Positions 1,494 to 63,534 of a stretch of 64,000 nucleotides of DNA are shown in pieces. Numbering within the stretch: position 1 is the stretch's first letter; the number at the start of each line of letters is the position of its first letter. The notes beneath the pieces were generated by a model, which was not told where the DNA came from, made no database searches, and saw only the letters and a program-made list of their open reading frames with translations. The stretch spans positions 418,203 through 482,202 of the forward strand of contig CAKQTG010000001.1 in assembly GCA_934276735.1 (NCBI GenBank), written 5' to 3'. Made by a program: the position numbers and the translations under genes. This DNA comes from an uncultured Alphaproteobacteria bacterium (GTDB taxonomy: Bacteria > Pseudomonadota > Alphaproteobacteria > Rs-D84).

Positions 1494-1547
1494 ATAGACA
1501 GATAAATTCAATCTGTGTTATGATACTTAGCACAGAGAGAATTTTAC

Positions 1548-4500
1548 ATGAAATACATCAGAATTTTACTGCTTTCATTGTTTGTAATGCCGTTTGCGGC
1601 ACACGCGGCGTCGTCTGAATTTATGGTTGCGGCGCAATTGCTGGCCGCGGCAAAAAATGCCGATATTCAACAGGTCCAGGCGTTGATAAACAATGGCGCA
1701 AATGTGAATTTTGTGGATTCAACGGGTATGTCGATTGTGTGCACGGCACTGATGAACAATGACGTGCGTGCGGCTCAGATTTTACAGATGTATGGTGCTG
1801 ATGCGTCAAATTGCGACCGTCAAATTCGTGCATATAAAAATAAAAACCAGACCGGTGCGGGCTCTGGCGGGCTGTTTGGTGGGCTGTCGTCCGCCCAAAG
1901 TATTACACTGGCGGCGGCAGGTGCCGCCGTTGTTATTGGTGGGCTGTTTCTGTTGACCGATGTGTTTGATCCGGGAAACGATAATGGGTCATCTGGATCG
2001 ACCGGAAATCGCGTTGACGACAATACGGGCGGTAACACCGGCGGTGGTGCGTCGGCCGCGTTCACAACGCCGTATGGTCCGGCAATGCCAACCGCGGCGG
2101 ATGAAACCGCGAATCTGGCAACCAACCTGAATTATTACAGCCCCAGCACAGATGGTATATTAAAAGATAACTTTGCGTTGATGAACGCGTATAAACAAAA
2201 CTATCTGTTGATGATGGGGGGATATACCGCGTTGGCGCGTGGATATATGGGGATGCGGACACTGCGTAATTCATCAACGCGCGCGCCGATTTCAATCAGT
2301 GGTAATAACCTGGGGTCGGAACCAGTGCTGGGGGGGCGGCCGGTGAACGTTGCGCTGGTTACGACAAATGGTATCAATGCAACCGATGATTCATCACTGG
2401 GGGACCGCATATTGCCGTGGACAACGACTAATAATAACGGCACAACCGCAAATCCGGCGGCGATTGATATGATTTCCAGCAAATATTACAACAATAAACT
2501 GGTCGCGGGCAGTGATGGCACATCGCTGGCGGGATATACCACAACCGAAGATGCGTCGTTGTTAGATTACCTGGATTTGTCGGGATTTGGCACCGCGACG
2601 AATAACACCACGGCAACCGGCAGTGATAATCTGTTGGCGAAAATTGTCGGGGGCAAGGATTCTGGATACACCACGGCGGATTTTATCGGATTTATGCCAA
2701 ATGGCCAGATGACAATATTCAGAACCGGTGGTGGCCAGAAAATGAAAACCGTTACAGGGGCCCAGGCCAGTGGCTCTTATGCAATGGCGGGCGATGCGCT
2801 GGCCACAGGGGATACGTTGACACTGTTTGATAAAACACTGACGGTGACGCGGACCGGCAATGTGATTGTCGCAACAGACGGCACGACGACATATAACGGG
2901 TATATCGGGGCGGACGGACTGCTGTATATCGACAGTGCGGCCGATGGCAAAATCAACCAGGCATATACAATCGCCGATAATAAATTGACATTGGGCAAGG
3001 AACTGGCGGCGGCGGATTATTATAATTACAAGGCGATGTTAAACGCGGCCGCGTTGTGGAGTGTTGGTGACGCCGCGTCTGGGGGGCGTTCAATGCCAAA
3101 TATAATTGCCAATGCGTCGGTGATTTCGCCGTTGCGGGTCCAGAACGTTGAATCAATTGATGATTTGCTGTCATTTTTATCATCGCAATATGTGGCAAAG
3201 TTTGCCGAATTTGTGAACAAATATTATGATGTTGACGCGACCGATGGCACAAGTGGGACAAACAGTTTGCCCGGTGTCGACGCGGTCAAATTCTTTAATG
3301 GATTGGGATCGACATATTCGCCGTTGACGCTGTTTTCAACCGGCGCATTTGAAACTGACAGCGCGTATTCTGGCAAGACATTGTCGGCGACGTTTGAAAA
3401 TGCGGCACCGCTGGTGTTTTCAAATCTGAATCATCTGTTTATGTCGGTCGTTGCCATTGGCCAGGTTGGCACCGGCACATCTGCGGCGGAAAGTGTTTCG
3501 GGGTACACGCCCGCGAATAAATATCAAATCAGTCAATGGCATGACACCACATCTGATAAATATTACAAGGCACGCGTATGCGGTATCGCGGGGCGGGGCG
3601 CAAATGGGGTTGACCCATGGTGCTTTGCCGCCACAGGTGTGACCGATGAACTGGCAACGGCGGCGGCGGCCGGTGCGGCGGGCGCGGTGCAATCGGCGTT
3701 CAGTTATATGGACAATAAACAATTGTTCGCGTTGTTGGCGTTGACGGCCGATGGGCCGTATCTGGGGTCGGTGAGTGCCGGTAAATCTGTGACCAAGGTG
3801 GAACTGATTTCATATCTGCAAAATCTGTATACGATGCCCAGTGAATATACATATCGCTGGGAAAATGGTGGCGAAAACTATCTGGATGTTTTCAAAGAGG
3901 TTTTCGGTTATGGTCTGATAAACGTTGCGCGTGCGACCACCCCAAATACCAAGGTATATTATTATGATGGCACCAATATCGTATCCAGCAAGGGTAACGC
4001 ATACTGGCGTGCGGCAACAAATACCACGTTCCGGGCGTCGTCGGCGTTCAGCCCGCGTATGGCAACCATCAGCGCGCCGTTCTTTGATAAACTGGAAAGT
4101 ATCGATGGTGATTTGACGTTGCCGCGTATTTGGAAAAATGAATTCGCGGTTGGTACGCAATCGCGTCGTGGGTTGTATATGGGTGATGTCTTGGGCGAAT
4201 TCCGGACAGGCACCGCTGCCGCGCCACGCACCCAGATTGGCAATATCGGATTTTCAATGACCGCATCGCCACGCGCATATGACGACAATATGGCCGGAAT
4301 TGATACGATGCAATTTGATTATGCACGTGGGGCATGGAACTTTGCCGCCGGATACCAGCGTTACCTGACCGATGGGGCGTCGCGCTTTGACGGGTTGTCA
4401 AATCCGATTTTGTCCCTGGCGTCAAATGCGGTTGTGTCTGGGGCGGATTATAATGCGGGCCGTTGGTCATTTGGTGCACGCGCGTTTTCGGGTGCAATTA

Positions 4501-13880: not shown

Positions 13881-14317
13881 TTGCCAACTCACAAAATTCC
13901 CGTAGGTATTTTTTATGGTTGAAATTTAATTTTTTGGCGATTATAGTGAATATGAATCCAAAGGGATTTGGGTTCGGGGCCTTCAACAAGCCCGTAAATC
14001 TGTGGTATGCGCGATGCGTATATCAAATCCGCACAGTAAAGCGGCGCACATGCGCCATTTATTGTATGTACCCCACCATTATGGTCGGGGATCCACCGGT
14101 AATACAACAGGGGAAACCCAAAGATCGGTGGGGTCATTCTGATTTATGATTTGTTGAAATCCCCGACCGTCAAATAATTTTTGGCGGTTTTTTGTAATTT
14201 GTTTTGACGTATGTCCTGGGGCGATAATTTTGCACTTGCAAGCGTCAAAACAGATGGTATAAATAAAACTAACAGACGATGAAAATCGTCATCATTTGGA
14301 ATGAAAAGGAGAGCCTT

Positions 14318-17300
14318 ATGAAAATGTCCCGTACAGCAATCAAAGAATTAACCGCGGCATATCGTGCCGTATTGAAACATGCATTTATTGCCGCAATGGG
14401 CGCAATGGTCGTTATCGGTGGCGCATCAGCCGAAAATACGAACAATCGTGAATACTTTACAGCAGATACAGAATGGTCTGGTAAAAATATTTCAAACAAT
14501 GATTTTAAGTATGCCGAAGGTCGGACTGATAAAAACAAAGCGTTTGGAGGATTGGCTTTTGTTGATGGGGCAAAATTGACGGTTGCAGATTCTGTGTTTG
14601 ACAATAACACATTTGATTATGTTGGTGGTGTTTTTGCAACTGGCGTCGGTGGGGGCGTATTAGATGTATCTGGTTCAACATTTTCTAATAATCATAGCAC
14701 ATTTGATGGTGGTGCCATTGGTGGCTATGGCGTGTTAAAGGTCACAAATTCTACATTTGTTGGAAACACAACAGATTTGACCAAGGATGCCGAAGGTAAT
14801 TATACTGTTGCAGTTGAGGATAATTTGCCAGTAGGCGGTGGTGCAATTTCGTTTGGTGCGGTTTCATCATCAGATATTGCATCAATCAATGACACAAAAT
14901 TTATTAATAATGTGTCTGGAATAAATGGTGGTGCTATTGGAACGCGTTTGGGCAAGGATGCAAATAACAGTGCAGCAAAATTAAACGTATCGGCAACGTT
15001 TGAAGGCAATCGCGCATATCAAAATGGTGGTGCGATTTATAATACGTTTTATGCGAATAATGGTTTGGAATTGGGCGATGGTGTGACCGTGGCTGGTAAT
15101 TTTACCAAAAATTCCGCAGGCAAAAACGGTGGCGCAATCTTTAACGATGGTGCCAAGGACAATATTGGTAATGCCGGTGGCGTTATGACCATTCGCGATT
15201 CGTTGTTCAGTGAAAACAGTGCAACAAAATGGGGCGGGGCAATCTTTAACAGTGGCACATTGACACTGGGCGATGGCGTTTCGTTCACAGGCAACAGCGC
15301 AACAGATGGTGGTGCGGTTTGGAATGACGGTAAAATGGAAATCGCCGCAGGAACTAAGTTTGTTGGCAATAATAGTAAAAATGCCGCTGGTGCGTTGTAT
15401 AACAATGGTACTGGAACATTGGACAATCTGATTGGTGTTGTTTTTGAAAATAATACCGCGGCGAAGGGTGGTGCTATTAACAATTCAAAAACATCAGCCA
15501 GCGTCAAGGGTGGAATAATAAATCTGATTTCAAAATCACATTTCATTGGTAATTCTGGTGGAATATCTCAAGGGGGGGCAATCCGTAATCAGGGAACTAT
15601 ATCTAAAATTGAAAAGAGTGTATTTGACTCCAACGTCGCAGGAAATGGTGGCGCAATCAATAATGGAACCTGGGGCAGCGTGGTAGAAGGTATTTATCAG
15701 ACAAAGTTTATCAATAATACGGCGGTTGTGGGACCAGCCCAGCAAGGTGGTGCGATTGTCAATGCAGGACACATCGGCATTATTGATGAAACGGTGTTTG
15801 AATCAAACCATGCTGGCAAGATTGGTGGTGCAATAGCAAATGTGACCCCACAAAATAGTGGTGGCGACCCTGCAGAGGTTAATATTGCAAATTCTACATT
15901 TACAGGTAATGTTGCCGGTGAAAGCGGTGGTGCAATATACAATGCCACAGGTGGGGCGGTAAGTCTGTCTGGGGAAAATACGTTTACTGGTAATATGGCG
16001 GGTGGCGTCGGAAACGATATTCACAATTTGGGTAAATTGACGGTGTCGGGCGGCACAACGACCATTGATGGCGGTATCACAGGCGATGGCGCATTGACCA
16101 TTGCTGATGGCGCAACACTGAATATCGGTACCACAACGGTTCAACAAAAAGAATTGACACTGGACGGCACGGTTGGAGTATCACTGATAGACGCTGAAAA
16201 TTACGGTAAATTGTGGGTGGAAACATATACAGGCAACGGTAAGATTGCGCTGAATGTTGCAACGCCTGGGACATACGATGTTTTTGGAGAGTATGTCGTG
16301 TATGATAATGTTGATGCCGGTGCGGTATATAACATGGTCAGAGATGGCGGTAAGTTCACTTTCAAAACCAAAGCAGTGAATGAAATTGCAGCTGACACTG
16401 GGTTGACGAATGTTGCCGCAAATACGGTTGCTGCGTTGGCAAATGCAGATAACAATTTGGCAAATATTGCATCGCTGAACGCGCAACAGGCATTGCGTAA
16501 TGGCGATACAGATTATGTTGAAATCGAATCTGCCAAGGCAAACCCAATTGATCAACCTGTCGTTCAATCGGTTGCGCAATCTGTTCAGGGCGCAGTCATG
16601 ACACTGGCGGCGAATCGTATGGCGGGCACACCATCGGCGGGCACAATGGGCCGCAGCGGTGGTGATTTGTCTGATGCTGATTACGGCGTGTGGGCACAGG
16701 GTATGTTTAACAAATCCAAATTCAATGGCCAGTTCAACGGATACACCCGTGGTGTGTCGGCTGGGTTTGATGCGCTGATTGACAAACAGTACACGATTGG
16801 TTTGGGTTATGCGTTCGGACATTCTGATGTTCATGCCAATGGCGGTCGCGATACCGAAATTGACAGCAATAGCATATTTGCATATGCCCAGTACAAGCCA
16901 AGCGAATGGTTCGTCAATGCGGCATTGAATTACACAATGTCAAAATATACCGAAACCGTTGACGCATTTGGTGTTCGTCTGAAATCAGACCACGATACTG
17001 ATGCGTTCGGTGGCCAGGTTATGACCGGTTATGATTTTGCATCAGGCCTGACGCCGGAAATTGGTCTGCGCTATTTGCACGTGACCCAGGACGGATACAA
17101 TAACGGTCTGGCACACGTCAGCAGCGATGATACAGATTTCTTGACTGGAATTGCCGGTATGAAATATCGTTTCGCAATTGAAAACGATTCGGTTATCAAC
17201 TGGTTCCCAGAACTGCGTGCGGCGGCGACGTATGATTTTGTGTCTGACCGTGCGATGTCCACCGTTACAATGCCAGGCGCGGCGTCCTATGTGGTTGATG

Positions 17301-17449
17301 GCGACCGTCTGTCCCGATTCGGTGGGGAATTCGGAATTGGTCTGACCGCAGAATACAAAGGACTGGAAATCTCGCTGGTTTATGATTTGGATCTGCACAA
17401 AGATTACACATCACAAACCGGTATGGCAAAATTCAGATATGAATTCTGA
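14318..17449 (+). CDS. Polymorphic-outer-membrane-protein (Pmp)-like autotransporter. The passenger is full of GGAI and FxxN repeats; a C-terminal beta-barrel ends in ...KFRYEF.
   Basis: At least 12 GGA[IV] motifs (GGAISFG, GGAIGTR, GGAIYNT, GGAIFND…) alternate with F(V/T/E/I)GN motifs. The C-terminal ~300 aa is beta-strand-like and ends in an aromatic residue. Start moved to ATG 14318, six nt after an aaggag RBS. Confidence 0.8.
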   Translation: MKMSRTAIKELTAAYRAVLKHAFIAAMGAMVVIGGASAENTNNREYFTADTEWSGKNISNNDFKYAEGRTDKNKAFGGLAFVDGAKLTVADSVFDNNTFDYVGGVFATGVGGGVLDVSGSTFSNNHSTFDGGAIGGYGVLKVTNSTFVGNTTDLTKDAEGNYTVAVEDNLPVGGGAISFGAVSSSDIASINDTKFINNVSGINGGAIGTRLGKDANNSAAKLNVSATFEGNRAYQNGGAIYNTFYANNGLELGDGVTVAGNFTKNSAGKNGGAIFNDGAKDNIGNAGGVMTIRDSLFSENSATKWGGAIFNSGTLTLGDGVSFTGNSATDGGAVWNDGKMEIAAGTKFVGNNSKNAAGALYNNGTGTLDNLIGVVFENNTAAKGGAINNSKTSASVKGGIINLISKSHFIGNSGGISQGGAIRNQGTISKIEKSVFDSNVAGNGGAINNGTWGSVVEGIYQTKFINNTAVVGPAQQGGAIVNAGHIGIIDETVFESNHAGKIGGAIANVTPQNSGGDPAEVNIANSTFTGNVAGESGGAIYNATGGAVSLSGENTFTGNMAGGVGNDIHNLGKLTVSGGTTTIDGGITGDGALTIADGATLNIGTTTVQQKELTLDGTVGVSLIDAENYGKLWVETYTGNGKIALNVATPGTYDVFGEYVVYDNVDAGAVYNMVRDGGKFTFKTKAVNEIAADTGLTNVAANTVAALANADNNLANIASLNAQQALRNGDTDYVEIESAKANPIDQPVVQSVAQSVQGAVMTLAANRMAGTPSAGTMGRSGGDLSDADYGVWAQGMFNKSKFNGQFNGYTRGVSAGFDALIDKQYTIGLGYAFGHSDVHANGGRDTEIDSNSIFAYAQYKPSEWFVNAALNYTMSKYTETVDAFGVRLKSDHDTDAFGGQVMTGYDFASGLTPEIGLRYLHVTQDGYNNGLAHVSSDDTDFLTGIAGMKYRFAIENDSVINWFPELRAAATYDFVSDRAMSTVTMPGAASYVVDGDRLSRFGGEFGIGLTAEYKGLEISLVYDLDLHKDYTSQTGMAKFRYEF

Positions 17450-18289: not shown

Positions 18290-20845
18290 CTATTGCCCAG
18301 TGCCTGTGCCACCGCCCGATGTGTTGTCGCTTGTCGTTGCGCCATTGGTGGTTGAGTTGTTATTACTGGTTGTTTCGTCATCTGAGGCACGGCAATAACC
18401 CCATTTTGTATTTGCACCTGTTTCGGAATAGAATTTCTGGTGCAATTTATGTCCCGTAATGTCATGCTTGCCGTTACCACCTTTCGTGTTGTTTGTGGCC
18501 TGTTGGTCGGTTGTGGTTTCGGTGGAATCGTTTTCTTCTTGGTCAATCCATTGCGTATCAACCCACAGTCCGTTCAGACGTTTGCATTCCGCCGCTAGCA
18601 CTGTTGCCATTTCAACACGTATTGAATCCATGACGACATTTACATCTTCCATAACAGTGGTCGGCAATACGTAATTGGATTTGGTCGCCTCGGACGGACG
18701 GACACAGGTCTGCATTGCGTAGCGCACCATTTTTTGATACAGACTGCCGATATAGTCGGTGCCACATTTGCTGGTGTCAACCTCTGGTTCGTCCGGCGTT
18801 TCTGTGCCGCCGCATACACCATCCGTGCATGGCTGGCAACTGTTGCCGGTGGTGAGGGTGTTGTCTGCAACCCATATACCGTTTTTACGGACCGCCAGGA
18901 AGTAACCTTGTTTGCAACGCGTGTATTGTTTGCTGGTTGGGCAAATGTATCCGGATGCGGTTGATGTGTCGCCATCGTCACCGCCCGGTGTATTGCCGCC
19001 GGTATCATCATCGCCACCACTGTCGCCATTATTGCGATTCCACAATTCCTGGTTACACTGGTAATTTGTGGCGTATTGCTGTTCGCCCGGCGCATACACG
19101 CGGCAACCATACGGATATGCGTGCAGACTGTCGTTAGATGGGACGGCGCACATGTCGCGTGCAAATTCTTGCAAAGTGACACGGCATTCCTTGCCAATCT
19201 TTTGATCGGTGATGTTGCGCATGGCCTGGACCAGTAAATCCAGGGCGTTGCCGGAACCGTCGCTATATAACATGCTGCACGCCTGTAATTTTTCCTTGCA
19301 CATTTCTTCGGATAATTCCAGGCGCGACCCCCGTAATAATTGCTCTTTGACATTACTAAAATCTTTTAACGATTTGCTCTGTTCATCGTAACAGGCATTT
19401 ACGACGTCCAGACATTCGTTTTTGACGGTGCGGATTCGTTCATGCTGGCCCTGGTATATTTCGGCGATTGCCTGGCGCATGAATTCATCCCACACATCGT
19501 CGGCCAGATCGCGACACGTGTCCAGTCCGCGCGCGGCGTATGCACGCTTGCTGTTTAATTCGGCGACAATCAGGCGGTTTGAAGGATTGGTCAACACGTC
19601 GCCCGATAATGAAATCTGGGTTTCCAATTGGTAAAAATCCGCCGTGTAAATAGGTTCGCCCTTGTCCCGGGTCAGATACCGGCCAGATATATCCAGACAA
19701 TGAACATAATCTGTGCCACACGCCGTGTCGGCGGTGATATCCTTGCGCACCTGGGCGATACAGTCGTTGATTGATGTTGAATTATGGGCGTTATAATTTT
19801 CCAGACGCGCGTCGTTCATTTCGCGCTCGGTGCTGCGTATCGTGCCCTGGGCGGTCGCCAGTTTTTTATTCAGTGCCGTCAGCAATGTTGTGCAATCGTT
19901 TTCAATATACATGCCATACGCTGCGACAACCATGTTCAGGGTTGATCGTGACGGACAGCGTTCAGAAACCAAATCGGCACACTGGCTGTGCACCGCGTTG
20001 TATAATGATTCCCCGGTCAGGTTCGCAATGTTTGCGCCCGATGCCAAATCTGTGGTTGCCCAGATTGCGTTTATGTCGCCGGCGATGTCCAGTGTCCCCA
20101 GTGTTGATAACGAATTTGATTTGGTCTTGGTTAAAACCGCACTGATACCGGCCAGTTTTTGCGCCGATGATGAATTGTCGCGTGCGGTTGATGCCGCAGT
20201 TTCGCCGGTGGTCGCGTTGACCATTGCCTTGACCTCGGCCGCGGTTTTGGGAATAACCTCTATATTCAAGTTCTTGAAATCTTGCAGTTGGTCAGATGCC
20301 TGGCCCAGGGCGCGTTCACGTGATTTTATTTCGGTCAGCTTGGACGAGCATACGCACCGACGGTATGTGTCATCTTGTTTTGCACAGAATTGATCCATGC
20401 ATGAAAAGTATGCGTCACGGCACGTGTTGTATCCGGTGCCAAATGTGTTTGTGCCGGCCGCCGATGTGGTGGTGGCGCGGGCGACCGCCCCGCTGCGCGC
20501 GACGGTTTTTGTTGCACTGCGTGCAGATGATTGTGTCGTGGTCGCACTGCGCGCGGTGGTTGTTGCACTGCGTGCGGTGGTGTTGGTGCGGGCCGCACTG
20601 CGCGCCGTGGCGGTGCGGTTGACCGTATTGCGTGCGGTGGTGCGCGCCGTTGCATTACGTGCGGTGGTCGCGGTTGCCCCCGTGCGCGTTGATGTTTGTT
20701 GTGATTGTGCGGTGTCTGATTTTGCGCGCGTGGTGACACTGTCTCTGGGCGTGGTGCGGGTGACGCTGGACGCGCTGCGCACCGCGGCATCGGCAAAACC
20801 GATGCCGGCACAGAGTGTTGCGGCAAAAAGCAAAATCTTTTTCAT
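18290..20845 (-). CDS. Paralog A of the large secreted Cys-rich protein family (851 aa). Signal peptide, then a T/A/R-rich tandem-repeat linker, then the family motif CRDAYFSCMDQFCAKQDDTYRRCVCSS, then a Cys-rich helical body.
   Basis: Start moved to ATG 20845 (MKKILLFAATLCAGIGFADA). Motif and downstream blocks (ACGTDYVHCLD, CRDLADDVWDEF) align with paralogs B and C. Confidence 0.75.
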   Translation of the reverse strand: MKKILLFAATLCAGIGFADAAVRSASSVTRTTPRDSVTTRAKSDTAQSQQTSTRTGATATTARNATARTTARNTVNRTATARSAARTNTTARSATTTARSATTTQSSARSATKTVARSGAVARATTTSAAGTNTFGTGYNTCRDAYFSCMDQFCAKQDDTYRRCVCSSKLTEIKSRERALGQASDQLQDFKNLNIEVIPKTAAEVKAMVNATTGETAASTARDNSSSAQKLAGISAVLTKTKSNSLSTLGTLDIAGDINAIWATTDLASGANIANLTGESLYNAVHSQCADLVSERCPSRSTLNMVVAAYGMYIENDCTTLLTALNKKLATAQGTIRSTEREMNDARLENYNAHNSTSINDCIAQVRKDITADTACGTDYVHCLDISGRYLTRDKGEPIYTADFYQLETQISLSGDVLTNPSNRLIVAELNSKRAYAARGLDTCRDLADDVWDEFMRQAIAEIYQGQHERIRTVKNECLDVVNACYDEQSKSLKDFSNVKEQLLRGSRLELSEEMCKEKLQACSMLYSDGSGNALDLLVQAMRNITDQKIGKECRVTLQEFARDMCAVPSNDSLHAYPYGCRVYAPGEQQYATNYQCNQELWNRNNGDSGGDDDTGGNTPGGDDGDTSTASGYICPTSKQYTRCKQGYFLAVRKNGIWVADNTLTTGNSCQPCTDGVCGGTETPDEPEVDTSKCGTDYIGSLYQKMVRYAMQTCVRPSEATKSNYVLPTTVMEDVNVVMDSIRVEMATVLAAECKRLNGLWVDTQWIDQEENDSTETTTDQQATNNTKGGNGKHDITGHKLHQKFYSETGANTKWGYCRASDDETTSNNNSTTNGATTSDNTSGGGTGTGQ
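20480..20720. repeat. Intragenic tandem repeat (~24-30 bp units encoding TTARNATARTTARNTVNRTATARSAARTNTTARSATTTARSATTT) inside paralog A
   Basis: Reiterated gcactgcg(t/c)gc(g/a)gtggt… units are visible in the DNA. Confidence 0.6.
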
Positions 20846-20956
20846 CCTTGGCTTTGTGATAATGATAGCAAAAATGCCCTTTTCGGGGCAAGGGTTATTT
20901 CGCACAATCGCGCAATTTTTTTGCAAAAATAATCCCGCAGATTACGGGACTTTTTA

Positions 20957-21205
20957 TTAATTATTTGTATCTGTGTTGGACGGACGGTTACGTTCAACAA
21001 ATGTGATACGTCCCTTGTCCAAATCGTATGGGGTCATTTCAACACGGACGCGTTCGCCAATGTTGACCCAGATGCGCGCCTTGCGCATTTTGCCACACAC
21101 GGTGGCCAAAATTTCGTGACCGTTTTCCAATTTAACACGAAACATCGTGTTCGGTAATTTATCTTCGACCGTGCCACTGAATACAATTACATCATCTTTT
21201 GCCAT
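20957..21205 (-). CDS. infA: Translation initiation factor IF-1
   Basis: [69 protein letters not shown]… is the canonical IF-1 S1 domain, followed by a short extension ([12 protein letters not shown]) not found in E. coli IF-1 (established knowledge of infA). Confidence 0.9.
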
Positions 21206-21345
21206 AGTTTATCCTTAGCATTTTTCTGAATTTTTACTGGTCTAATATTATATTTTTGCATAAAAAATTGCAAGTTGTTTTTATCTGCTTGCACGGCGGG
21301 GCCGGATTTGATAAAATTAGACATAATAATGTAGGGTGGAGTCAT

Positions 21346-23514
21346 ATGAGATTAGGCTTGTTTTTCACATTGTTGTGTGTTGTGCCGGGACTGGCATATG
21401 GGGCGGCGCGTGATGATACGAACGTTCGTGTCGGGGTGACGCGTATGTCAATGGCGGGTGCGCGTGCGCCAAATATGACGGGAAATCTGGGCGGAAATAA
21501 AACCACCACGCCGACGATACCAACCACCAGCAGCAGTGGTGGCACAACAAATCCGACGCCAAATCCAACACCCACTCCCACACCAGAACCGACACCGGCC
21601 CCCGCGCCAAATCCGGGCACGTCCGACGCTGGCACTGACACATCGTGTCGCACGGCGTATCGCGCGTGTATGGATGAATTCTGCCTGTTGGACGAGAGCG
21701 AGGGTAATCGTTGCGCCTGTTCGGATAACATAAACAAATCAAAATCATTGATTCAAGAAATTCAAAAAATTCAATCAGACGCTGATAATTTATACACCGA
21801 GGGGGTAGAGCGCGAACAACTGGGGGCCAAGGCAAAACTGGTATTTGGCCAGAGTGCGGCCGCACAGAAAAGTTCGCGTGCATCGGGACTGAGTTTTACC
21901 GAGTGGTTAAACAGCGACAATAATTCGGATTCGCTGGGTGCGGACGAAGATATTGGCGATGGTCTGTATTCGATGGCGGCAACATATTGTGCCGACGCAT
22001 TGGCGAAATGTGGCAGTTCTGCCGATATGGAAGAGGCGTTATATTCTCGTCAAATTGTTGCCGATTGCAAGGCGTTTGATTCATATCTGGCCGACCAGAA
22101 ATCAAATGCCCAGGCCAACAAACGCACGGCCGAGGCCGCTGTGCGCAAGGCGCGTCTGGAAATGTTGGATACAACAAATAAATATAACCGCGGCGAATGC
22201 CTGTTGGCGTATAAATCGTGTATCGCGGACAAGGGCGGCTGTGGCGCGAACTTTGAAAACTGTTTGGATCGCGACCTGTTGGGGCGTCGTGCAAATGCGT
22301 GCGAAAATGTTCTGGACCAGTGTATGGCGGTGCGGGACAGTGTATTACAGGATTGGGATGCAGAATCCGAAAGTATTTTAGTTGATGCGGCGAAATACGC
22401 GGATAAAAATGCCCGCGCAACATGTCTGGCACGGATTCAGGTCTGTTTGGAAGATGGATGCAGCACGGCAACAAATTCGGCGTGCCTGACCGATGTCAAG
22501 GTTGCGGCCGGTGTTTGCCCGGTTATTACCGAATGCGAAGAAATGATTCCGGGTATCCAAAGTGCGGTCAATGATAAACTGGGGTATCTGCGGACGCATT
22601 TCTGCCAGAACGATATTGATAAATGCCTGCAAAGCAAGTGCGGTGAAAACTTTACTGCGCCGGAATGCGTTGGTAAAAGTGCAACGGAAATTGCCGCGCT
22701 GTGCCCCCAGGATATGTATCCGTCATGCAAAAACGAAACCCAATTTGACATAATTGTGCAATCGGTTTTGTTACAGATGGATTACCAGATGTTGCAAGGG
22801 TGCCTGAATTACTTTGGCGAACAGTTGGGCAAGGTTTGCGGCACGGATATGTCGTGCCTGCCGACGGATACGACGATTGCGTCACTGACGTCGGTGCCGG
22901 ACGATTCTGCGGCATTGGCGCAGTTGCGCGAAACCGTGCGCAGCAATGTTGCCACGTCGGTGGATGAATTCTTTACCCAGTTTGAACAGGATAAAACGGT
23001 TGCTGCCTGTGCAGACAGCCAGAAACCCGCCGGTAAAAAATCATTGGGCGACACGGTGTTCAACAGTGCGAAAATGATCGCACAAATCGGGGCGGAAAAT
23101 CGTGCGATGCGCGCATTGGAAACCAAGATTTCAGAACTGTCGCGCCAGCAAGATTTGAATGCGGCCGAAAAGAACTGTCTGAATACATACAAGGTGGAAT
23201 CGCCGGACAAATCGTCCAAGAATTACAGTTATATCCGCAGTGTATCGTTTGAACCATCGTTGCGTAATTGCCATGTGTGCCGTATGCAACAGGTCTGCGA
23301 AACGGGTGGCGAATCCAAGGGAACCGCGGGCCTGAAAGGATTGGCGGGCGGCCTGTCGGCGGGTGCGGCGGCTGGCACGATGGTGACCCCGGGGTGGGGC
23401 ACGGCAATCGGCGGTGTCGTTGGCGCGGTTGGTGGTCTGTTCGCAGGGCGCAGTGCGGGTGGCAAACAAGAATTCTGCCAGGAAATTGAATCCTGTGAAG
23501 ATATAAATATGTAA
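21346..23514 (+). CDS. Paralog B of the large secreted Cys-rich protein family (722 aa). Signal peptide, P/T-rich linker, motif CRTAYRACMDEFCLLDESEGNRCACSD, Cys-rich body, C-terminal RNCHVC box, glycine-zipper hydrophobic tail.
   Basis: Start moved to ATG 21346 (ggtggagtcatATG; MRLGLFFTLLCVVPGLAYG). Blocks YSRQIVADC, NKYNRGEC, CGANFENC and CENVLDQCMAVRDSV are shared with paralog C. Confidence 0.8.
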   Translation: MRLGLFFTLLCVVPGLAYGAARDDTNVRVGVTRMSMAGARAPNMTGNLGGNKTTTPTIPTTSSSGGTTNPTPNPTPTPTPEPTPAPAPNPGTSDAGTDTSCRTAYRACMDEFCLLDESEGNRCACSDNINKSKSLIQEIQKIQSDADNLYTEGVEREQLGAKAKLVFGQSAAAQKSSRASGLSFTEWLNSDNNSDSLGADEDIGDGLYSMAATYCADALAKCGSSADMEEALYSRQIVADCKAFDSYLADQKSNAQANKRTAEAAVRKARLEMLDTTNKYNRGECLLAYKSCIADKGGCGANFENCLDRDLLGRRANACENVLDQCMAVRDSVLQDWDAESESILVDAAKYADKNARATCLARIQVCLEDGCSTATNSACLTDVKVAAGVCPVITECEEMIPGIQSAVNDKLGYLRTHFCQNDIDKCLQSKCGENFTAPECVGKSATEIAALCPQDMYPSCKNETQFDIIVQSVLLQMDYQMLQGCLNYFGEQLGKVCGTDMSCLPTDTTIASLTSVPDDSAALAQLRETVRSNVATSVDEFFTQFEQDKTVAACADSQKPAGKKSLGDTVFNSAKMIAQIGAENRAMRALETKISELSRQQDLNAAEKNCLNTYKVESPDKSSKNYSYIRSVSFEPSLRNCHVCRMQQVCETGGESKGTAGLKGLAGGLSAGAAAGTMVTPGWGTAIGGVVGAVGGLFAGRSAGGKQEFCQEIESCEDINM

Positions 23515-23530
23515 TATTCGGGCATAAAAT

Positions 23531-25972
23531 ATGAATATAAAAAATATATTGACGTTTGTGATTTGTGGTGTTGTGGCCGTGGGCGCGGGTGACGCGTTGG
23601 CGGCGGCCAAGACATCGAAACAGGCGGCAATACAAACCGGGACAAATGTTCGGGCGCGGCTGACGGCAACAGGTCTGTATGACCAGGAATGTTATGACGC
23701 GTATTATTCGTGCATGGATCAATTCTGTATCGCGGATAATTCCAGTGGGGGCAGTTGCGCATGCAGTGACGAAAACGCAAAATATGAACAACAACTGGCC
23801 GAAATCCAAGATATGGTGGACGAGGCCGCACGTATCCGCACCGAAGAGGTTGAAAAGGTTCGCGCGGGTGCGGATGCCGATATTATATTTACGGGCGAAC
23901 GCAAATACGATGAAAACGGCAATATTATCAAGACGGGCGAATTGACCGCGGCAGAAAAAAAAGCCCAAGACCGCCAGAGTTTGATGGCGTTGTTTAACGC
24001 GACCAGCGACGATGACGAAGATGTTGTAACAGGTATCGCGGACAAGGCCGGCAACGCGCTGTATAACGCGGCCCAGGAACTGTGCACGGCCCAGATTCCG
24101 GACAAATGTTCGTCTGATTTGAATTTCTTGACCCAATTATATTCACGCCAGATTGTATCAGACTGTCGCGGTTTTGAAAACAGCATCAACGCCAAAATGG
24201 CCACCGCAAAGCAAGACTTGGTTACTGCCCAGGGCGAAGTGCGCACCGCACTGCAAGAAAGTTTTGAATCGGCCAATAAATATGATTTGGGCACATGCAT
24301 GGTGGAATTTAAAAAGTGCATGCAGACCGATGATGCCTGTGGCGCGGGTTGGGAAAATTGTGTTTCGACAATTGCATCTGAAAATATGCAAAACAATACC
24401 GCGGTCAGCACCGCCGGCACCACGGTTGCAACGGTTGATAAATATGACATAACCACGTCAACCATGGAAATCTTGAATTCCAAGCGCACCATTTGTGAAA
24501 AGGTTTTGGACCAATGCGTCGCCGTCCGCGACCAGGTTTGGCCGGCGTTCCTGCGCGAAGCGGCCCCAACGATAAAGGTTGCCGAATCCCAGGTTGAATC
24601 AAAGTTTCGTCAATCGTGCCTGGGCACAATTTCCGACTGTATCCAGACGGCGTGTCGCGACGATATCGCGGGCAAGGGCGTTGCAACAATGGACGCATGC
24701 TTGGCACGTCCCGATATGGCACGCAGTTTCTGCAAGGTTGAAATTGACCCGTGTGAACGCATGGAACCGCAAATTTGGGACTATGTAACCGATAAACTGG
24801 CGGCGATGCGTGTTGATGCCTGCACGAACGAGGTCAAAGAGTGTTTTACCGCGGATACACGTTGCGGCGCGAATTTCCAGAACTGTATCGGTATGGATTA
24901 CGATTATATTCACGATATTTGCCCGATTGACACGTTGGTTGTCTGCAAACAGAATAACAAAGACTTTTCAATGGATGATTTGGATTCTATGTTGATGGGG
25001 CTGTATCTGAATATTGATAACAGTGCGCTGACCCAGTGTGAAAACCTGGTCGACACCAAAATGGCCGAAATTTGTGGCAGCACCACCGACTGTAACAAAT
25101 TCGCCAGTGATGATACAATTGGCACCGGATCATTGCGTTCCCAGAAAGATGGCACGACGTATCGTGTGACCGGTATGATTTCGTTCGGCAGTATCAAGAT
25201 GGGCGACGCGTCTGGCAAAACGATTGACAATGGCGATGGCAAGACTGTGCGTCTGGGCCCCGGTGAAATCGGTGTTGCAGAATACCTGAACCAGATTCGC
25301 ACGCGCAATTCGTCGGTCAAAAATGCCGATGGCATCATTTCGTCAATTGAAGAAGAACTGAACAACATTGCTGGCACAATCAATCGCACAATTGAAATGA
25401 TTGAACAGGACCCGCAAATCCAATACTGTGTGAACGGGCGCGATTTGTCCCAGATTACGGGCAAGGCGAACCAGAAAACCACGGCACGTTTTCCGAACCT
25501 GTTAAACAGTGTGAAAATGCAAATCGCGGTCGCTGCACTGCGCCAGGCCCAGGATAACTATAACGCCAAACTGAATAAACAAATCGCAGACGCAACCAAA
25601 GACGCGTCCACAGATTTGGCGCAATATATGTGCCAGAAAATGGCCGAAACCGGCGGGGCGGGCACAACCGGAATTTCATCATCAACGCCGCTGGCGGCAC
25701 CATATGCAATCAGTTATGATGTGGGCTCGGGCCTCAGTAATGATGACCTGACACGTGGCGGGACGGGTGAAACATCAATTACGACCACCGCGGGCAGTGG
25801 CGTCACCAAAACCGTGACCAGTCTGTTTAACCGTGAAACACGTAATTGCCACGTCTGCACCACAACCACCACACAGAGTTGCACTATAAAGGGCGGCAAT
25901 TGGTTCCGCAAGGCGAACAAGAATTGCGACGTTAAAACCGATGGCCCGAATTGTGAAGATATCGCAATGTAA
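23531..25972 (+). CDS. Paralog C of the large secreted Cys-rich protein family (813 aa). Signal peptide, motif CYDAYYSCMDQFCIADNSSGGSCACSD, Cys-rich body, C-terminal RNCHVC box.
   Basis: 16 bp downstream of paralog B, so probably in an operon with it. Blocks YSRQIVSDC, NKYDLGTC, CGAGWENC and CEKVLDQCVAVRDQV are conserved. Confidence 0.8.
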   Translation: MNIKNILTFVICGVVAVGAGDALAAAKTSKQAAIQTGTNVRARLTATGLYDQECYDAYYSCMDQFCIADNSSGGSCACSDENAKYEQQLAEIQDMVDEAARIRTEEVEKVRAGADADIIFTGERKYDENGNIIKTGELTAAEKKAQDRQSLMALFNATSDDDEDVVTGIADKAGNALYNAAQELCTAQIPDKCSSDLNFLTQLYSRQIVSDCRGFENSINAKMATAKQDLVTAQGEVRTALQESFESANKYDLGTCMVEFKKCMQTDDACGAGWENCVSTIASENMQNNTAVSTAGTTVATVDKYDITTSTMEILNSKRTICEKVLDQCVAVRDQVWPAFLREAAPTIKVAESQVESKFRQSCLGTISDCIQTACRDDIAGKGVATMDACLARPDMARSFCKVEIDPCERMEPQIWDYVTDKLAAMRVDACTNEVKECFTADTRCGANFQNCIGMDYDYIHDICPIDTLVVCKQNNKDFSMDDLDSMLMGLYLNIDNSALTQCENLVDTKMAEICGSTTDCNKFASDDTIGTGSLRSQKDGTTYRVTGMISFGSIKMGDASGKTIDNGDGKTVRLGPGEIGVAEYLNQIRTRNSSVKNADGIISSIEEELNNIAGTINRTIEMIEQDPQIQYCVNGRDLSQITGKANQKTTARFPNLLNSVKMQIAVAALRQAQDNYNAKLNKQIADATKDASTDLAQYMCQKMAETGGAGTTGISSSTPLAAPYAISYDVGSGLSNDDLTRGGTGETSITTTAGSGVTKTVTSLFNRETRNCHVCTTTTTQSCTIKGGNWFRKANKNCDVKTDGPNCEDIAM

Positions 25973-26858: not shown

Positions 26859-27194
26859 ATGAAAAAAATGTTTGTTGGTGCAATGGCGGTCGTGATGTCT
26901 GTGGCGGCGGCCAGTGCCGGTTTTGTTGATAATAATGAAACCATCGTCACCGTGGCCCAGGTCAAAGAAATGCGCGACGATGTTCCTGTAATTGTCACGG
27001 GGAATATTATCAAGAGTATGGGCGACGAAAAATATTTGTTCCGCGATGCCACCGATTCAATTGTTATTGAAATCGATGACGATGATTGGAACGGCCTGAC
27101 GGTGACACCGGACGATAACGTTAAACTGTATGGCGAGGTTGAATCCAAACTGTTCAAAACAGAAATCGAAGTAGACCGAATTGAAAAGTTATAA
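26859..27194 (+). CDS. BOF (YgiW/YdeI) family periplasmic OB-fold stress protein
   Basis: Signal peptide, then TIVTVAQVKEMRDDVPVIVTGNIIKSMGDEKYLFRDATDSIVIEIDDDDW…, typical of DUF388/BOF. RBS taaaggag. Confidence 0.7.
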   Translation: MKKMFVGAMAVVMSVAAASAGFVDNNETIVTVAQVKEMRDDVPVIVTGNIIKSMGDEKYLFRDATDSIVIEIDDDDWNGLTVTPDDNVKLYGEVESKLFKTEIEVDRIEKL

Positions 27195-27221
27195 AAAACG
27201 CGCCATCGGCGCGTTTTTTAC
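27195..27221 (+). terminator. Rho-independent terminator (aaaaacgcgccatcggcgcgtttttt)
   Basis: CGCGCC-NNNG-GCGCG hairpin plus T-run. The same hairpin type recurs at several gene ends. Confidence 0.7.
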
Positions 27222-27560
27222 AAGAGAGCAATGCGCAGAGAGCAGAGAGCAATGAAGCGCGCCAGTGGCGCGCTTGTTTTTATCGTCGCGGTCTAAGTTC
27301 CCCTTCGCTGGCGAAGGGGTGTCCACATAGTGGACGGGGTAGTGGTGGTCCCTGCGGGGCAATGGATACCGGCCTGCGCCGGTATGACAGTTGTGTGTGG
27401 TTGAGGACCATATTTTACGAACATAGTTTATGTCTTAGTTGCGGACCAAGTTCTCCTCCGGTAACCACCCGCGAAATTGATAAATTTCGTGGGTGGTTAC
27501 CAGGCCGGGGCCCATTGCCCCGCAGGGACATCGTTGCCCCAAAAAAACACAAAAAATCAT
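27222..27560. repeat. Mosaic intergenic repeat array (modules M1-M5). An inverted near-copy of the same ~250-bp composite is at 54920-55200.
   Basis: Contains agagagcagagagcaatgaagcgcgcc…gcttgtttttatcgtcgcgg, gttcccct…gcgaagggg, ggataccggcctgcgccggtatgac, ccacccgcgaaattgataaatttcgtgggtgg, all of which recur elsewhere in the window. Confidence 0.8.
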
Positions 27561-27619
27561 GCTGAATAAAAGGGGGTGAATCACGCGGAAATCAGGGCAA
27601 AAATACCCATAAAACCGTG

Positions 27620-27744
27620 CCGAAAATAAACCACCGTTTGGTTTTGACGTAAATTCGCGCTTGGTGATTGGTAAAAAATGTGCTAAAATTAAACCATTGT
27701 ATATAAGTGAGAAATGCCGAACCCAAACGGTGGTTTATTTTCGG
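27620..27744. promoter_or_regulatory. Perfect 22-bp inverted repeat (27620-27641 / 27723-27744) bracketing an 81-bp segment with promoter-like elements (TTGGTG …17 bp… TGcTAAAAT) upstream of the 27760 CDS
   Basis: ccgaaaataaaccaccgtttgg is an exact reverse complement of ccaaacggtggtttattttcgg. An extended -10 TGnTAAAAT lies between the arms. Confidence 0.5.
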
Positions 27745-27759
27745 CGCGGGGGATATATT

Positions 27760-29823
27760 ATGAAAAAAATCTGGTTTCTATCAATGTGTTGTGCGTGTAT
27801 GTTGGTCGGAATTTCTAATTCATATGGTGATTGTGGCGGAGATCAGTGCCAGTATAAGTTGTCTGATGGAACAACAGATTGCGCTAACATCGGCGAGGTC
27901 AGGCCCTTTAAGTGTAGACTCGGTAGCGGCGGCGTATATAGTCTAGATCATGTAAAAGTTGGAGACGGCGAGAATCATTGCGATGCAAAATGCAAGTCTG
28001 GAGTGTTTTCTAATTGGTGGTATTATACATTGCAGTCTGACGCATGCGAAGATGGGTGGAAGGTTGACTTCGATAAAAAAATCTGTGTCGCTGCTGATAA
28101 CCAAAAATGTAAATACACCGATGGGACGTTTGCTCAAACAGGTGTTGTTCGGAATAAGGGCAACTGTATTTTTGCTAGTCTAGAACATATAAAAAATGGT
28201 GGCAAGGGCCAGTGCAAGAACACGTGTAAGTCTGACGGTTGGTATTCGGAATTACACAATGACGCATGTGAAGATGGGTGGCTGGTTTCTGCTGATAAAA
28301 AAAGCTGTTGGCCGAAATGTAAAGAAAACCAGTGTGTACAGTCGGTTGATGGTAAAAAATCCTGTGTTGACAGCGGCAAGAGTGTTTACGAGAACTGCAA
28401 AACAGGGGATGGGGGCATAGATAGCCTGGAGCATGTAAAAGGTGGCAGTGGCTGGTGCACGGTCATGTGTGTATCAGGAAAGTGGGGACAACGAGAGTTG
28501 CGCCCCAATGCATGCGAATCTGGTTATGTGGTTGCCGCCAATAAAAAAAGCTGTGTTGCGGCCGAGAAAAAAAGCGATGTTGACGTGCCAGCGTCTGACC
28601 AGGGTGCGTCGAAACAGAAACCTGGTGCCTGTAAAGAAAACCAGTGTATATCTTCCCTTGATGGTAGCTGTATTGACAGCGGCACGAGTTTTAACGATAA
28701 CTGCAACACTGGGGAAGGAGGCATAGATAGCCTGGAACATGTAAAAGATGGTGGCTCGATTCAGTGCACGGTCACATGTGTATCAGGAAAGTGGGGACAA
28801 CGAGAGTTGCGCCCCGATGCATGCGAATCTGGTTATGTGGTTGCCGCCGATAAAAAAAGCTGTGTTGCCGACGATAAAAAGGGTGATGCTGGTGCTGATG
28901 CCTCGTGCGAGCTGGGGAAAGCATGTAAGCCATCCAGCCATGGCGCAAAGGGTGATGGAATATGTATCAAATATCAGGGTGACACGGTTAGTTGTGCGGC
29001 AACGGCGTGCGATACAGACAATGGATATCACCTGGTAAAGCAAAATGGTCAATCCATGGGATGGTGCCAAAAGTGCAAAAAGGACGAGCAGGTAAATGCC
29101 ACCGGCGATGGTTGCGTGTCGAAAAGTGCGAATGGCAATTGCCCCTATGAAGACGGGACGTCTGCCCAAACAGGTGACGTTGTGAACGATACGAACTGTG
29201 TTTCAGTTAATCTGGATCATGTAACAATGGGGGGTAAAGACCGGTGCAAGTCCACGTGTAAGTCTAATGGTTGGGATTATGAATTACACGTTTACGCATG
29301 TGAATCTGGTTATGTGGTTGCCGACGATAAAAAGAGCTGTGTAGAGAAAACCACCGTCGCAGCCGAGAAAGATATCAATCCGACAGAAACTTTGACGGAC
29401 AGCAAACAGGTCACCTGTGGTAAAATTATTGGTGCCCAGTGGATTGATGGCGAGTGCAGATGCACAACTGCCGGGTGGGTTATGAATGCGACTGGAACCC
29501 AGTGCGTCAAGGGCGAGGCACTGATAAAGGCCGAGCGGTTGTCGGCGTCCCGGACGAATATAAGCCGCCTGTATAAAAAACTGGACAGCATGTCAAATGA
29601 CTTTAAGGTGTCGGTATGGCGTGACAAACAGGGGAATTTTAACACATCGCGTCTGGCGTCTGATTCAATTGCGGCGGTGGTGTTGGGGACGACGGGGGCG
29701 TTGGTAACCAGCAGCGTTGTAAAAAAGAATCAGGTATCCAGTGGGTTTGAAGGTATTAGTTGCCAGATAGGCGGCCAGACCGTTGCCGGCTGGGGTGACG
29801 AGTTCAGTGTTGGAATGCAATAA
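27760..29823 (+). CDS. Secreted Cys-rich tandem-repeat protein (687 aa; about 60 Cys). It is built from ~100-aa repeats carrying C-x-S-G-[KW]… and C-E-[SD]-G-[WY]-[VL]-V-[AS]-A-[DN]-KK-S-C units, with a C-terminal hydrophobic anchor.
   Basis: Start moved to ATG 27760 (MKKIWFLSMCCACMLVGISNSYG). Repeats such as CVSGKWGQRELRPNACESGYVVAANKKSCVAA and CVSGKWGQRELRPDACESGYVVAADKKSCVAD differ by two residues. Confidence 0.8.
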   Translation: MKKIWFLSMCCACMLVGISNSYGDCGGDQCQYKLSDGTTDCANIGEVRPFKCRLGSGGVYSLDHVKVGDGENHCDAKCKSGVFSNWWYYTLQSDACEDGWKVDFDKKICVAADNQKCKYTDGTFAQTGVVRNKGNCIFASLEHIKNGGKGQCKNTCKSDGWYSELHNDACEDGWLVSADKKSCWPKCKENQCVQSVDGKKSCVDSGKSVYENCKTGDGGIDSLEHVKGGSGWCTVMCVSGKWGQRELRPNACESGYVVAANKKSCVAAEKKSDVDVPASDQGASKQKPGACKENQCISSLDGSCIDSGTSFNDNCNTGEGGIDSLEHVKDGGSIQCTVTCVSGKWGQRELRPDACESGYVVAADKKSCVADDKKGDAGADASCELGKACKPSSHGAKGDGICIKYQGDTVSCAATACDTDNGYHLVKQNGQSMGWCQKCKKDEQVNATGDGCVSKSANGNCPYEDGTSAQTGDVVNDTNCVSVNLDHVTMGGKDRCKSTCKSNGWDYELHVYACESGYVVADDKKSCVEKTTVAAEKDINPTETLTDSKQVTCGKIIGAQWIDGECRCTTAGWVMNATGTQCVKGEALIKAERLSASRTNISRLYKKLDSMSNDFKVSVWRDKQGNFNTSRLASDSIAAVVLGTTGALVTSSVVKKNQVSSGFEGISCQIGGQTVAGWGDEFSVGMQ
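28318..28929. repeat. Intragenic tandem DNA repeat, unit ~306 bp. Two near-identical copies (about 28318-28623 and 28624-28929) are flanked by more degenerate copies.
   Basis: For example 28461-28560 and 28767-28866 are ~97% identical; 28318-28475 matches 28625-28780. Confidence 0.8.
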
Positions 29824-39462: not shown

Positions 39463-40200
39463 GAGAGCATCCGTCTCCGCTGCGCTCCGTCGCGATAAAG
39501 AGAGCAGAGAGCAATGAAGCGCGCCGATGGCGGACACTCCTTATTTGTCATTCCCGCGTAGGCGGGAATAGGGACTATACAGTGCGAGCGAACGCGAGCC
39601 ATGTCCGAGCAATTGCGGATTTTATTATTGGTGACTAATCACTCAATTGTGACGTGCCAAGGGAACACAATGGATACCGGCCAGGCACCACCCACGAAAT
39701 TTATCAATTTCGCGGGGCCCGGACGGCCGGTATGACGGTGGTGTGTGGTTTGGGTGCTAATTTTTACGTATATTGTGCAACAATGAGCAAAAGTAATTTC
39801 TTAGTCCCTATTCCTGCCTTTGCCCACCCACAAAATCTTGCGATTTTGCGGGACCCGGAGCAGGAATGACAATAAGCACGCACTGTGTGTGACATTATTA
39901 CCTGGATCCTGGGGTCAAGCCCCAGGATGACAAGAGTAAAAATGTGCTAAGTTCCCCTCCGGTGGAGGGGTGGCACGCAGTGCCGGGGTGGTCTTGAGAG
40001 CCCGTAATGTTGAACAAGTGTAAAATACAAAAGACCACCTCCCCGCTGCGCGGGACTCCTCCATGGAACCACCCACAAAATTTGACAATTTCGCGGGGCC
40101 CGGAGGAGGAGAACTTAGTCCGCGACGGAAACGAAACAAAGTTCCCCTCTGGCCAGAGGGGAACTTTAATTTTATCACTCTATCACTTACTCACTAAAAA
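39463..40200. repeat. Mosaic intergenic repeat array (~740 bp) between rlmE and the dsbA-like gene, using modules M1-M6
   Basis: agagagcatccgtctccgctgcgctccgtcgcgataaagagagcagagagcaatgaagcgcgcc is identical to 45209-45275. Other module copies: cattcctgcgcaggcaggaatagggactatacagtgcgagcg, ggataccggccaggcacc, ccacccacgaaatttatcaatttcgcggggcccgg, ttgtgcaacaatgagcaaaagtaatttcttagtccctattcctgcc, cctggatcctggggtcaagccccaggatgacaagagtaaaaa, gttcccctccggtggagggg, gttcccctctggccagaggggaac. Confidence 0.85.
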
Positions 40201-45208: not shown

Positions 45209-45345
45209 TAGAGAGCATCCGTCTCCGCTGCGCTCCGTCGCGATAAAGAGAGCAGAGAGCAATGAAGCGCGCCATCGGCGCGCTTGTTTTTATCGTCGCG
45301 GACTAAGTTCCCCTCTGGCCAGAGGGGTGGCGCAACGCGCCAATG
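45209..45345. repeat. Mosaic repeat array (M1 + palindrome gttcccctctggccagaggggtgg + terminator-like cgcgccaatggcgcg) between rplI and pgk
   Basis: The first 67 bp are identical to 39463-39529. The M1 module plus the CCCCTCTGGCCAGAGGGG palindrome are seen at four or more loci. Confidence 0.85.
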
Positions 45346-62498: not shown

Positions 62499-62530
62499 AA
62501 AAACGCCCCACCCGGGGCGGTTTTTTATTA
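62499..62530 (+). terminator. Rho-independent terminator (aaaaaacgccccacccggggcggtttttt)
   Basis: Hairpin plus T-run after rpsU. Confidence 0.7.
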
Positions 62531-62990: not shown

Positions 62991-63018
62991 AAAAGTGCGC
63001 CATTGGCGCACTTTTTAT
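62991..63018. terminator. Bidirectional terminator (aaaaagtgcgccattggcgcactttttatt)
   Basis: GCGCC-ATTG-GCGC hairpin 3' of the minus-strand DUF805 gene. Confidence 0.65.
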
Positions 63019-63479: not shown

Positions 63480-63534
63480 AGAATTTCCTTTTTTTGCTTT
63501 GCTTGGGTATTCTAGCACAATTTTTCCCACCTGC

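Follow-up and report, generated by a model that had tools for sequence, protein, structure and literature searches.

The promoter region upstream of a gene for a cysteine-rich secreted protein in an uncultured alphaproteobacterium is, with a probability that we put at about 0.85, a site-specific DNA-inversion switch (an inverton), whose invertible segment carries the promoter and would turn the gene ON or OFF. The locus lies in a 64-kb window, by which we mean the whole stretch of 64,000 nucleotides that was analysed. A first-pass annotation of the window had read the locus as a DNA-inversion switch, and this reading is borne out across assemblies, in which both orientations of the segment 27642-27722 were found, one in the window and the other in L109, a contig from a related strain.

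In the mechanism that we propose, two 32-bp near-palindromic sites, inverted with respect to each other and 97 bp apart from centre to centre, would bracket the promoter, and a recombinase encoded elsewhere in the genome would bind both of them. Strand exchange in or beside the invariant ACCG(T/A)T centre would then flip the segment. In the ON state, represented by the window, transcription from the promoter would cross the right arm, then the GGGGGA ribosome-binding site, and enter the gene for the 687-aa protein. In the OFF state, represented by L109, the promoter would read leftward into a gene-free, repeat-filled spacer, ending at the bidirectional terminator at 27189-27223, which would halt such leftward transcripts. 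The activity of the promoter, the existence and class of the recombinase, the reversibility of the inversion and the switching frequency are what we infer in this reading of the locus.

The promoter segment and its two orientations

The sequence reads as the annotation had claimed: a perfect 22-nt inverted repeat encloses 81 bp, its left arm being CCGAAAATAAACCACCGTTTGG (27620-27641) and its right arm (27723-27744) the exact reverse complement of the left. A repeat search extended the inverted pair to 30-nt arms (27615-27644 and 27720-27749) that are 93% complementary. When up to 3 mismatches were allowed, the 64-kb window contained two copies of the arm, both of them in the 27620-27744 pair, and no arm match arose in any of 100 dinucleotide shuffles. 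The 81-bp middle is devoid of any ORF. The promoter elements, too, were confirmed by reading; TTGGTG, a 17-bp spacer and TGcTAAAAT are aimed at the gene, and the right arm ends 16 nt before its ATG at 27760. The coordinates of these features are collected in Table 1.

Table 1. Features of the switch locus, with the homologous switch found on other contigs (positions refer to the window unless a contig is named)
Feature	Position	Strand	Description
Terminator-like hairpin, bidirectional	27189..27223	.	After the upstream BOF-domain gene; 16-pair stem, then a T-run on the minus strand
Left recombination site (predicted), 32 bp	27618..27649	+	TGCCGAAAATAAACCACCGTTTGGTTTTGACG; contains the perfect arm 27620-27641; 28/32 positions as in the family consensus
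Crossover core (predicted)	27633..27638	+	ACCGTT; partner AACGGT at 27726-27731
Invertible middle, 81 bp between the perfect arms	27642..27722	.	Reverse complement in L109
Predicted promoter, extended -10	27661..27689	+	TTGGTG 27661-27666, N17, TG 27681-27682, TAAAAT 27684-27689; gene-facing (ON) in the window
Right recombination site (predicted), 32 bp	27715..27746	-	CGCCGAAAATAAACCACCGTTTGGGTTCGGCA on the minus strand; contains the perfect arm 27723-27744; 30/32 positions as in the consensus
Shine-Dalgarno-like GGGGGA	27748..27753	+	6 nt 5′ of the ATG at 27760; direct reading
Controlled gene	27760..29823	+	687-aa product; signal-peptide-like N-terminus MKKIWFLSMCCACMLVGISNSYG; cysteine-rich repeats of ~74-82 aa
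Homologous switch	L039 2082-2197; L043 2032-2147; L112 about 1530-1650		Between the divergent paralogous genes A and B

The TTGGTG-N17-TGcTAAAAT promoter is kept in two orthologous loci, L109 and L012. It was not listed by a generic promoter scan of the window, because its -35 element, TTGGTG, is weak and agrees with TTGACA at only 3 of the 6 positions. On the minus strand, a promoter-like TTGATA-16-CATAAT (27757-27784; 10 of 12 positions) lies within the first codons of the gene and is aimed back into the switch; this match may be a by-product of AT-rich signal-peptide codons.

A role for the repeat at the RNA level, in which it would regulate the downstream gene as a leader hairpin, attenuator or riboregulator, is scarcely credible. 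The right arm does lie in the predicted 5′ UTR, with a small GCCGAA/UUCGGC hairpin, and related loci have terminator-like hairpins that are partly made of the arm. However, the predicted 5′ UTR folds with a z score of +1.15, and an equally good or better fold was obtained for 178 of 200 shuffles, in keeping with the earlier view that a transcript-level hairpin is less likely. Moreover, the left arm precedes the promoter, the motif is found both along and against the direction of transcription, and no Rfam family was found at the region; a search of the whole window at the Rfam gathering thresholds returned four tRNAs only. The strong fold of the single-stranded DNA (z = -6.5) was rejected as independent support, as it merely restates the inverted repeat.

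Comparison with a related strain provided the second orientation. Among 5.8 billion proteins, the 687-aa protein had one relative, P0002 (72% identity), which is encoded on L109, a 2.6-kb ENA contig (ERZ26858510). Window positions 27535-27829 are collinear with L109 635-926, the upstream flank (ccccaaaaaacacaaaaaa...tgctgaataaaaggg...) and the start of the gene (ATGaaaaaaatctggtttctatcaatgtg) being in the same order. Within this collinear stretch, 27615-27750 corresponds to L109 848-713 on the opposite strand (95.6%). The 81-bp middle differed from L109 741-821 by 3 mismatches when flipped, as compared with 55 when aligned directly, and a symmetric in-silico flip of the window (at CCA|CCG and CGG|TGG) changed the identity to L109 from 117/173 to 155/168. 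The identical promoter sits on the opposite strand in L109 and, as the middle is inverted there, is aimed away from the gene.

Misassembly of L109 seems unlikely, because arms of 22-30 bp are shorter than the larger k-mers of assemblers and because L109 has SNPs of its own. Another ENA assembly of the window strain, a 484-kb metagenome scaffold, has the same orientation as the window. A search of the JGI metagenome contigs for the exact 38-nt flipped junction of the window locus gave 0 matches; the flipped form was reached later, in the ENA contig L109, via the protein homologue, and SNPs in the flank of that contig account for the miss. The orientation differences, at this locus and at those described below, are all comparisons between assemblies or strains.

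The 32-bp site family and its loci

Alignment of 25 sites gave the 32-bp consensus TGCCGAAAATAAAC-CACC-GTTTAGATTCGGCA, which is self-complementary at 24/32 positions and has an asymmetric centre, ACCG followed by (T/A)TT. The ACCG is nearly invariant, being present in 23-25 of the 25 sites at each position. To judge from the sequence, the consensus is laid out like a recombinase core site, in which two inverted binding arms have a short asymmetric crossover region between them; the asymmetry of that region gives the site a direction. We place the crossover at the window locus within ACCGTT/AACGGT, because ACCGAT is all that the exchanging sites of two other contigs, L039 and L043, share (see below), because the centre is nearly invariant, and because of the positions of the arm polymorphisms. 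Those between the window and L109 limit the exchange to AAAATAAACCACCGTTT.

The first-pass annotation had also offered an alternative, a bipartite operator, that is, arms serving as transcription-factor palindromes that act on the promoter with no rearrangement in the window strain. Part of this stood, in that each site is near-palindromic (TGCCGAA...TTCGGCA) and many loci have them at a promoter or immediately behind it. What it leaves unexplained is the flipped middles, at this locus and at others. A bound recombinase could also affect transcription, so that operator activity would be at most an added role of the sites, and we regard an operator in place of a switch as very improbable.

The inverton reading is also consistent with how the sites are arranged and distributed. 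In the window and in eleven other paired loci (on ten contigs), the motif forms an inverted pair that is located at a promoter or shortly downstream of it, adjoins a signal-peptide gene and is present in few copies; L007 and L012 have one site each, outside the paired loci. The concern raised in the annotation, that the 22-mer could prove to be a generic dispersed repeat unrelated to promoters, is answered by these promoter-linked, low-copy inverted pairs. The partner sites are inverted in 12/12 paired loci, and their centres are either 83-85 or 96-97 bp apart (97 bp in the window). As the two spacing classes are about one helical turn apart, they would fit a tightly bent, phased loop. Against the inverton reading, a loop of 97 bp from centre to centre is very short for synapsis, and strong DNA bending would be needed.

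The exact 22-mer occurs once each in 5 species-representative MAGs of uncultured Alphaproteobacteria, from human gut and sheep colon. The ORMR01 assembly has at least three loci (L043, L072 and L080), which have the same coverage and whose adjoining genes start with signal-peptide-like sequence; the window itself has one switch. When the 17-mer CCGAAAATAAACCACCG was scanned over metagenome contigs, 99 loci were obtained. Most of them were rejected as chance matches or as conserved coding sequence of soil or water organisms, and 8 human-gut loci were relevant.

A second contrast in orientation was provided by the human-gut contigs L039 and L043. Over 4 kb they are collinear, with 96% identity, except for a 103-bp inversion in which L039 2093-2195 corresponds to L043 2034-2136 in reverse complement. 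The flipped piece bears TTGACG-N18-TAAAAT and the arm TGCCGAAAATAAACCACCG, and the switch is flanked by divergent paralogous genes for cysteine-rich signal-peptide proteins (A, MRCHITT...; B, MKRTQIV...). In L039 the promoter faces A; in L043, in a third assembly, L112, and in the Logan contig L113 it faces B. The arrangement is that of a putative two-way toggle, not an ON/OFF switch. Identity between the exchanging sites is limited to ACCGAT, which is too short for homologous recombination and therefore indicates a site-specific enzyme at this locus. L112 combines a 24-bp flank indel that it has in common with L039 with the orientation of L043, and orientation therefore does not track strain relatedness.

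L008 carries two paralogous switches, at 839-966 and 3548-3675, which are 2.7 kb apart. Their middles are identical at 50/64 positions only when one of them is flipped, and one promoter faces its gene while the other faces away. The cores of the second pair differ from each other (AACGTT vs AACATT), and this pair might be locked. In L005, the promoter is aimed away from the sole adjacent signal-peptide gene. An orthologue of the window gene (MKKIWLLSICCVC...) adjoins the locus at L012 2600-2720 (minus strand; the same in L048), on a 696-kb contig of a more distant genome. There the same TTGGTG-N17-TGcTAAAAT faces the gene and the right-hand site is kept, and the left site is absent; from this sequence arrangement, the locus appears to be locked ON.

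These contrasts bear on the possibility that rare accidental inversions, for example by RecA-dependent recombination between 22-30-bp repeats, became fixed in different strains, with no dedicated recombinase and with the repeat conserved for some other reason. Such an account gains from the fact that every orientation difference is between assemblies and that no recombinase was found nearby, and a perfect repeat of 22-30 bp is about the lower limit for homologous recombination. However, the ACCGAT that the L039 and L043 sites have in common is far too short for it. Four independent orientation contrasts were found (window/L109, L039/L043, L039/L112 and the L008 paralogues), and a 32-bp dyad with an invariant centre, in at least five species and at two discrete spacings, is the signature of a protein-recognised site. 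We therefore consider accidental inversion unlikely, and retain site-specific inversion as the preferred explanation.

At other paired loci the promoter is not the part that the sites enclose. At L009 5927-6043, a Shine-Dalgarno sequence and an ATG lie in the 53-bp piece between the paired sites, and a signal-peptide-like ORF begins there. After a symmetric in-silico flip, the frame continues stop-free into the divergent gene on the opposite side (MQISELFNKIKTTLLIGGLFSA-LYCNSA-MAKNATDV...), and the piece may be an invertible translation-start cassette. At L072 1927-2041, L080 6808-6923, L022 4774-4889 and L006 4355-4469, the promoter lies outside, just 5′ of the first site, and the sites bracket a leader of 51-53 bp; in L072, this leader piece contains CCCCGGAtttCCGGG followed by a T-run. 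The arrangement at these four loci suggests an invertible terminator or leader, not an invertible promoter.

Taken together, the loci could represent a lineage-wide regulon of uncultured gut Alphaproteobacteria, a proposal that we make tentatively and to which we would give slightly less than an even chance. A single trans-acting recombinase would act on the conserved 32-bp dyad site, flipping unusually short segments, whose site centres are ~84 or ~97 bp apart (two spacings that differ by roughly one helical turn), in several wirings and thereby varying cysteine-rich secreted proteins. The wirings would comprise promoter ON/OFF control (window and L008), a toggle between divergent paralogues (L039/L043), leader or terminator inversion (L072 and L080) and a start-codon/signal-peptide cassette (L009).

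Recombinase genes and the surroundings of the probable switch

The annotation had seen no recombinase gene in the window, and neither Pfam (~48 ORFs) nor a motif screen of ORFs of at least 100 aa revealed one. When the window and 13 loci were screened by regex for motifs of tyrosine and serine recombinases, no such gene was found except one in L072, the 8.4-kb leftward extension of the scaffold yielded no recombinase gene, and none was found in most of the related 4-14-kb loci. The L072 gene (3211-4077, minus strand) encodes a XerD-like tyrosine recombinase (TIGR02225, 299 bits, just below the cutoff) and lies 1.2 kb from the related switch. Its nearness is probably a coincidence, because its neighbours are LptG-, GreA- and MutL-like housekeeping genes. 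As to the class of the enzyme, a tyrosine recombinase would be compatible with the 6 bp that the cores share; the AAACC-AC-CGTTT centre may point to serine invertases, being reminiscent of their hix sites.

The product of the controlled gene is a predicted secreted protein, presumably located at the surface; its sole Pfam signal is a faint cEGF match. The neighbouring genes in the window are housekeeping genes (GrpE, TIM, UvrA, ClpP/X, PGK and others), and the window also encodes several large cysteine-rich proteins lacking a Pfam match, plus an autotransporter. Three adjacent genes at 18290-25972 encode cysteine-rich proteins of 878, 752 and 813 aa that have signal-peptide-like starts and no Pfam match; no member of the recombination-site family was found upstream of these three genes. 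The autotransporter (14279-17449; 1056 aa) has Chlamydia polymorphic-membrane-protein repeats and is probably a further surface protein. When three other intergenic regions of the window were scanned for inverted repeats, nothing related to the switch arms was detected, and a weak arm match at 21152-21170, which sits in an IF-1-like coding sequence, was rejected as chance.

The upstream half of the intergenic region that contains the switch (27195-27530) is a mosaic of dispersed repeats with nested palindromes. Such repeats are also present at 54919-55154, 45247-45314, 39499-40123, 53084-53772 and 62520-64000 (27235-27470 and 55154-54919, for example, are 97% identical over 236 nt). The Logan contigs L003 and L004 terminate inside this repeat region, and the upstream flank of L109 carries the same repeats. 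They make up a putative separate REP- or MITE-like family, unrelated in sequence to the switch arms.

It is extremely improbable that the switch region itself, as the 135-bp unit 27615-27749, is a MITE- or REPIN-like element with 30-bp terminal inverted repeats that was inserted oppositely in the two strains. Its size and terminal inverted repeats are MITE-like, and the intergenic region abounds in other dispersed repeats of palindromic structure. Yet the arm has two copies in 64 kb, which form one pair, with few loci per genome, and no target-site duplication is visible at the ends of the unit. In L012, the orthologous gene is preceded by the promoter and a single arm, and L039 and L043 have no long terminal repeats. 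Two independent insertions, at the same position and in opposite orientations, would be improbable as well.

Relation to known DNA-inversion systems

According to the definition of an inverton in the literature, the window locus would functionally be a classic case (PMC11602134). Gut invertons typically adjoin surface-related genes (PMC11892184), and those that have been characterised are almost all from Bacteroidota, Firmicutes, Akkermansia and enterobacteria (PMC11602134, PMC11892184). A full-text literature search, which is weak evidence given its incomplete coverage, returned no description of invertons in this alphaproteobacterial lineage. The type of switch is known, and the 32-bp site family appears to be undescribed.

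Phase-variable surface proteins affect the persistence of gut bacteria and their evasion of immunity and phages. For a gut alphaproteobacterial lineage that is uncultured and represented by MAGs alone, the present analysis provides a comparatively validated switch, a searchable 32-bp consensus and candidate variable cysteine-rich secreted proteins. Assemblies of such organisms capture one state only of these loci. The very short, helically phased spacing, together with the several wirings, would make this a compact system for the synapsis of sites less than 100 bp apart.

Among the known systems, Mycoplasma penetrans mpl consists of invertible promoters of 135 bp with 12-bp repeats, which control many variable surface-protein genes and switch independently. 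The loci described here are similar in being very short invertible promoter cassettes; they differ in lineage and repeats, and they are scattered at a few per genome, whereas mpl is a large tandem family. The Hin/hix system of Salmonella and the related Gin/Cin systems are served by serine invertases; the Hin segment spans about 1 kb, houses the gene of its invertase and requires a Fis enhancer. The ~1-kb segment, the internal invertase gene and the Fis enhancer are all absent here. An apparent likeness to hix lies in near-palindromic sites with A-rich half-sites ending in AAACC beside a short asymmetric centre (...AAAACC-AA-GGTTTT... in hix and ...TAAACC-AC-CGTTT... here).

Escherichia coli fimS is an invertible promoter of 314 bp with 9-bp repeats, has the genes of the tyrosine recombinases FimB and FimE adjacent to it, and needs DNA bending. 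It would share with the window locus an invertible promoter, the ON/OFF control of a surface structure and the need for DNA bending. The 32-bp sites, the 97-bp spacing and the lack of an adjacent recombinase set the window locus apart.

In Clostridioides difficile, a single trans-acting recombinase, RecV, serves several short switches (cwpV, flgB and others) that have imperfect inverted repeats and some of which work via a leader or terminator. These latter switches resemble L072, L080 and L006, in which the paired sites do not enclose the promoter. C. difficile belongs to another phylum, its sites have another sequence, and its segments are about 150-300 bp long.

The invertible promoters of Bacteroides fragilis are reportedly served by a global serine invertase, Mpi (Coyne et al. 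2003, cited in PMC11602134). Common to that system and to ours are short promoter segments, one repeat consensus at several loci, a recombinase that is mostly not adjacent, and surface targets in a gut commensal. The Mpi repeat, ARACGTWCGT, is unrelated to TGCCGAAAATAAACCACCGTTT here, and the 81-bp segment is about half as long as the Mpi segments, which measure roughly 170-230 bp. The targets of Mpi are capsular polysaccharide operons, in contrast to the cysteine-rich secreted proteins of the present host, which is an alphaproteobacterium.

By analogy, then, the system most resembles the regulons of trans-acting invertases, those of Mpi in B. fragilis and RecV in C. difficile, in which several loci have one consensus and no adjacent recombinase. 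It is distinguished from both by its lineage, its site sequence, its target genes and the very short, phased spacing of its sites.
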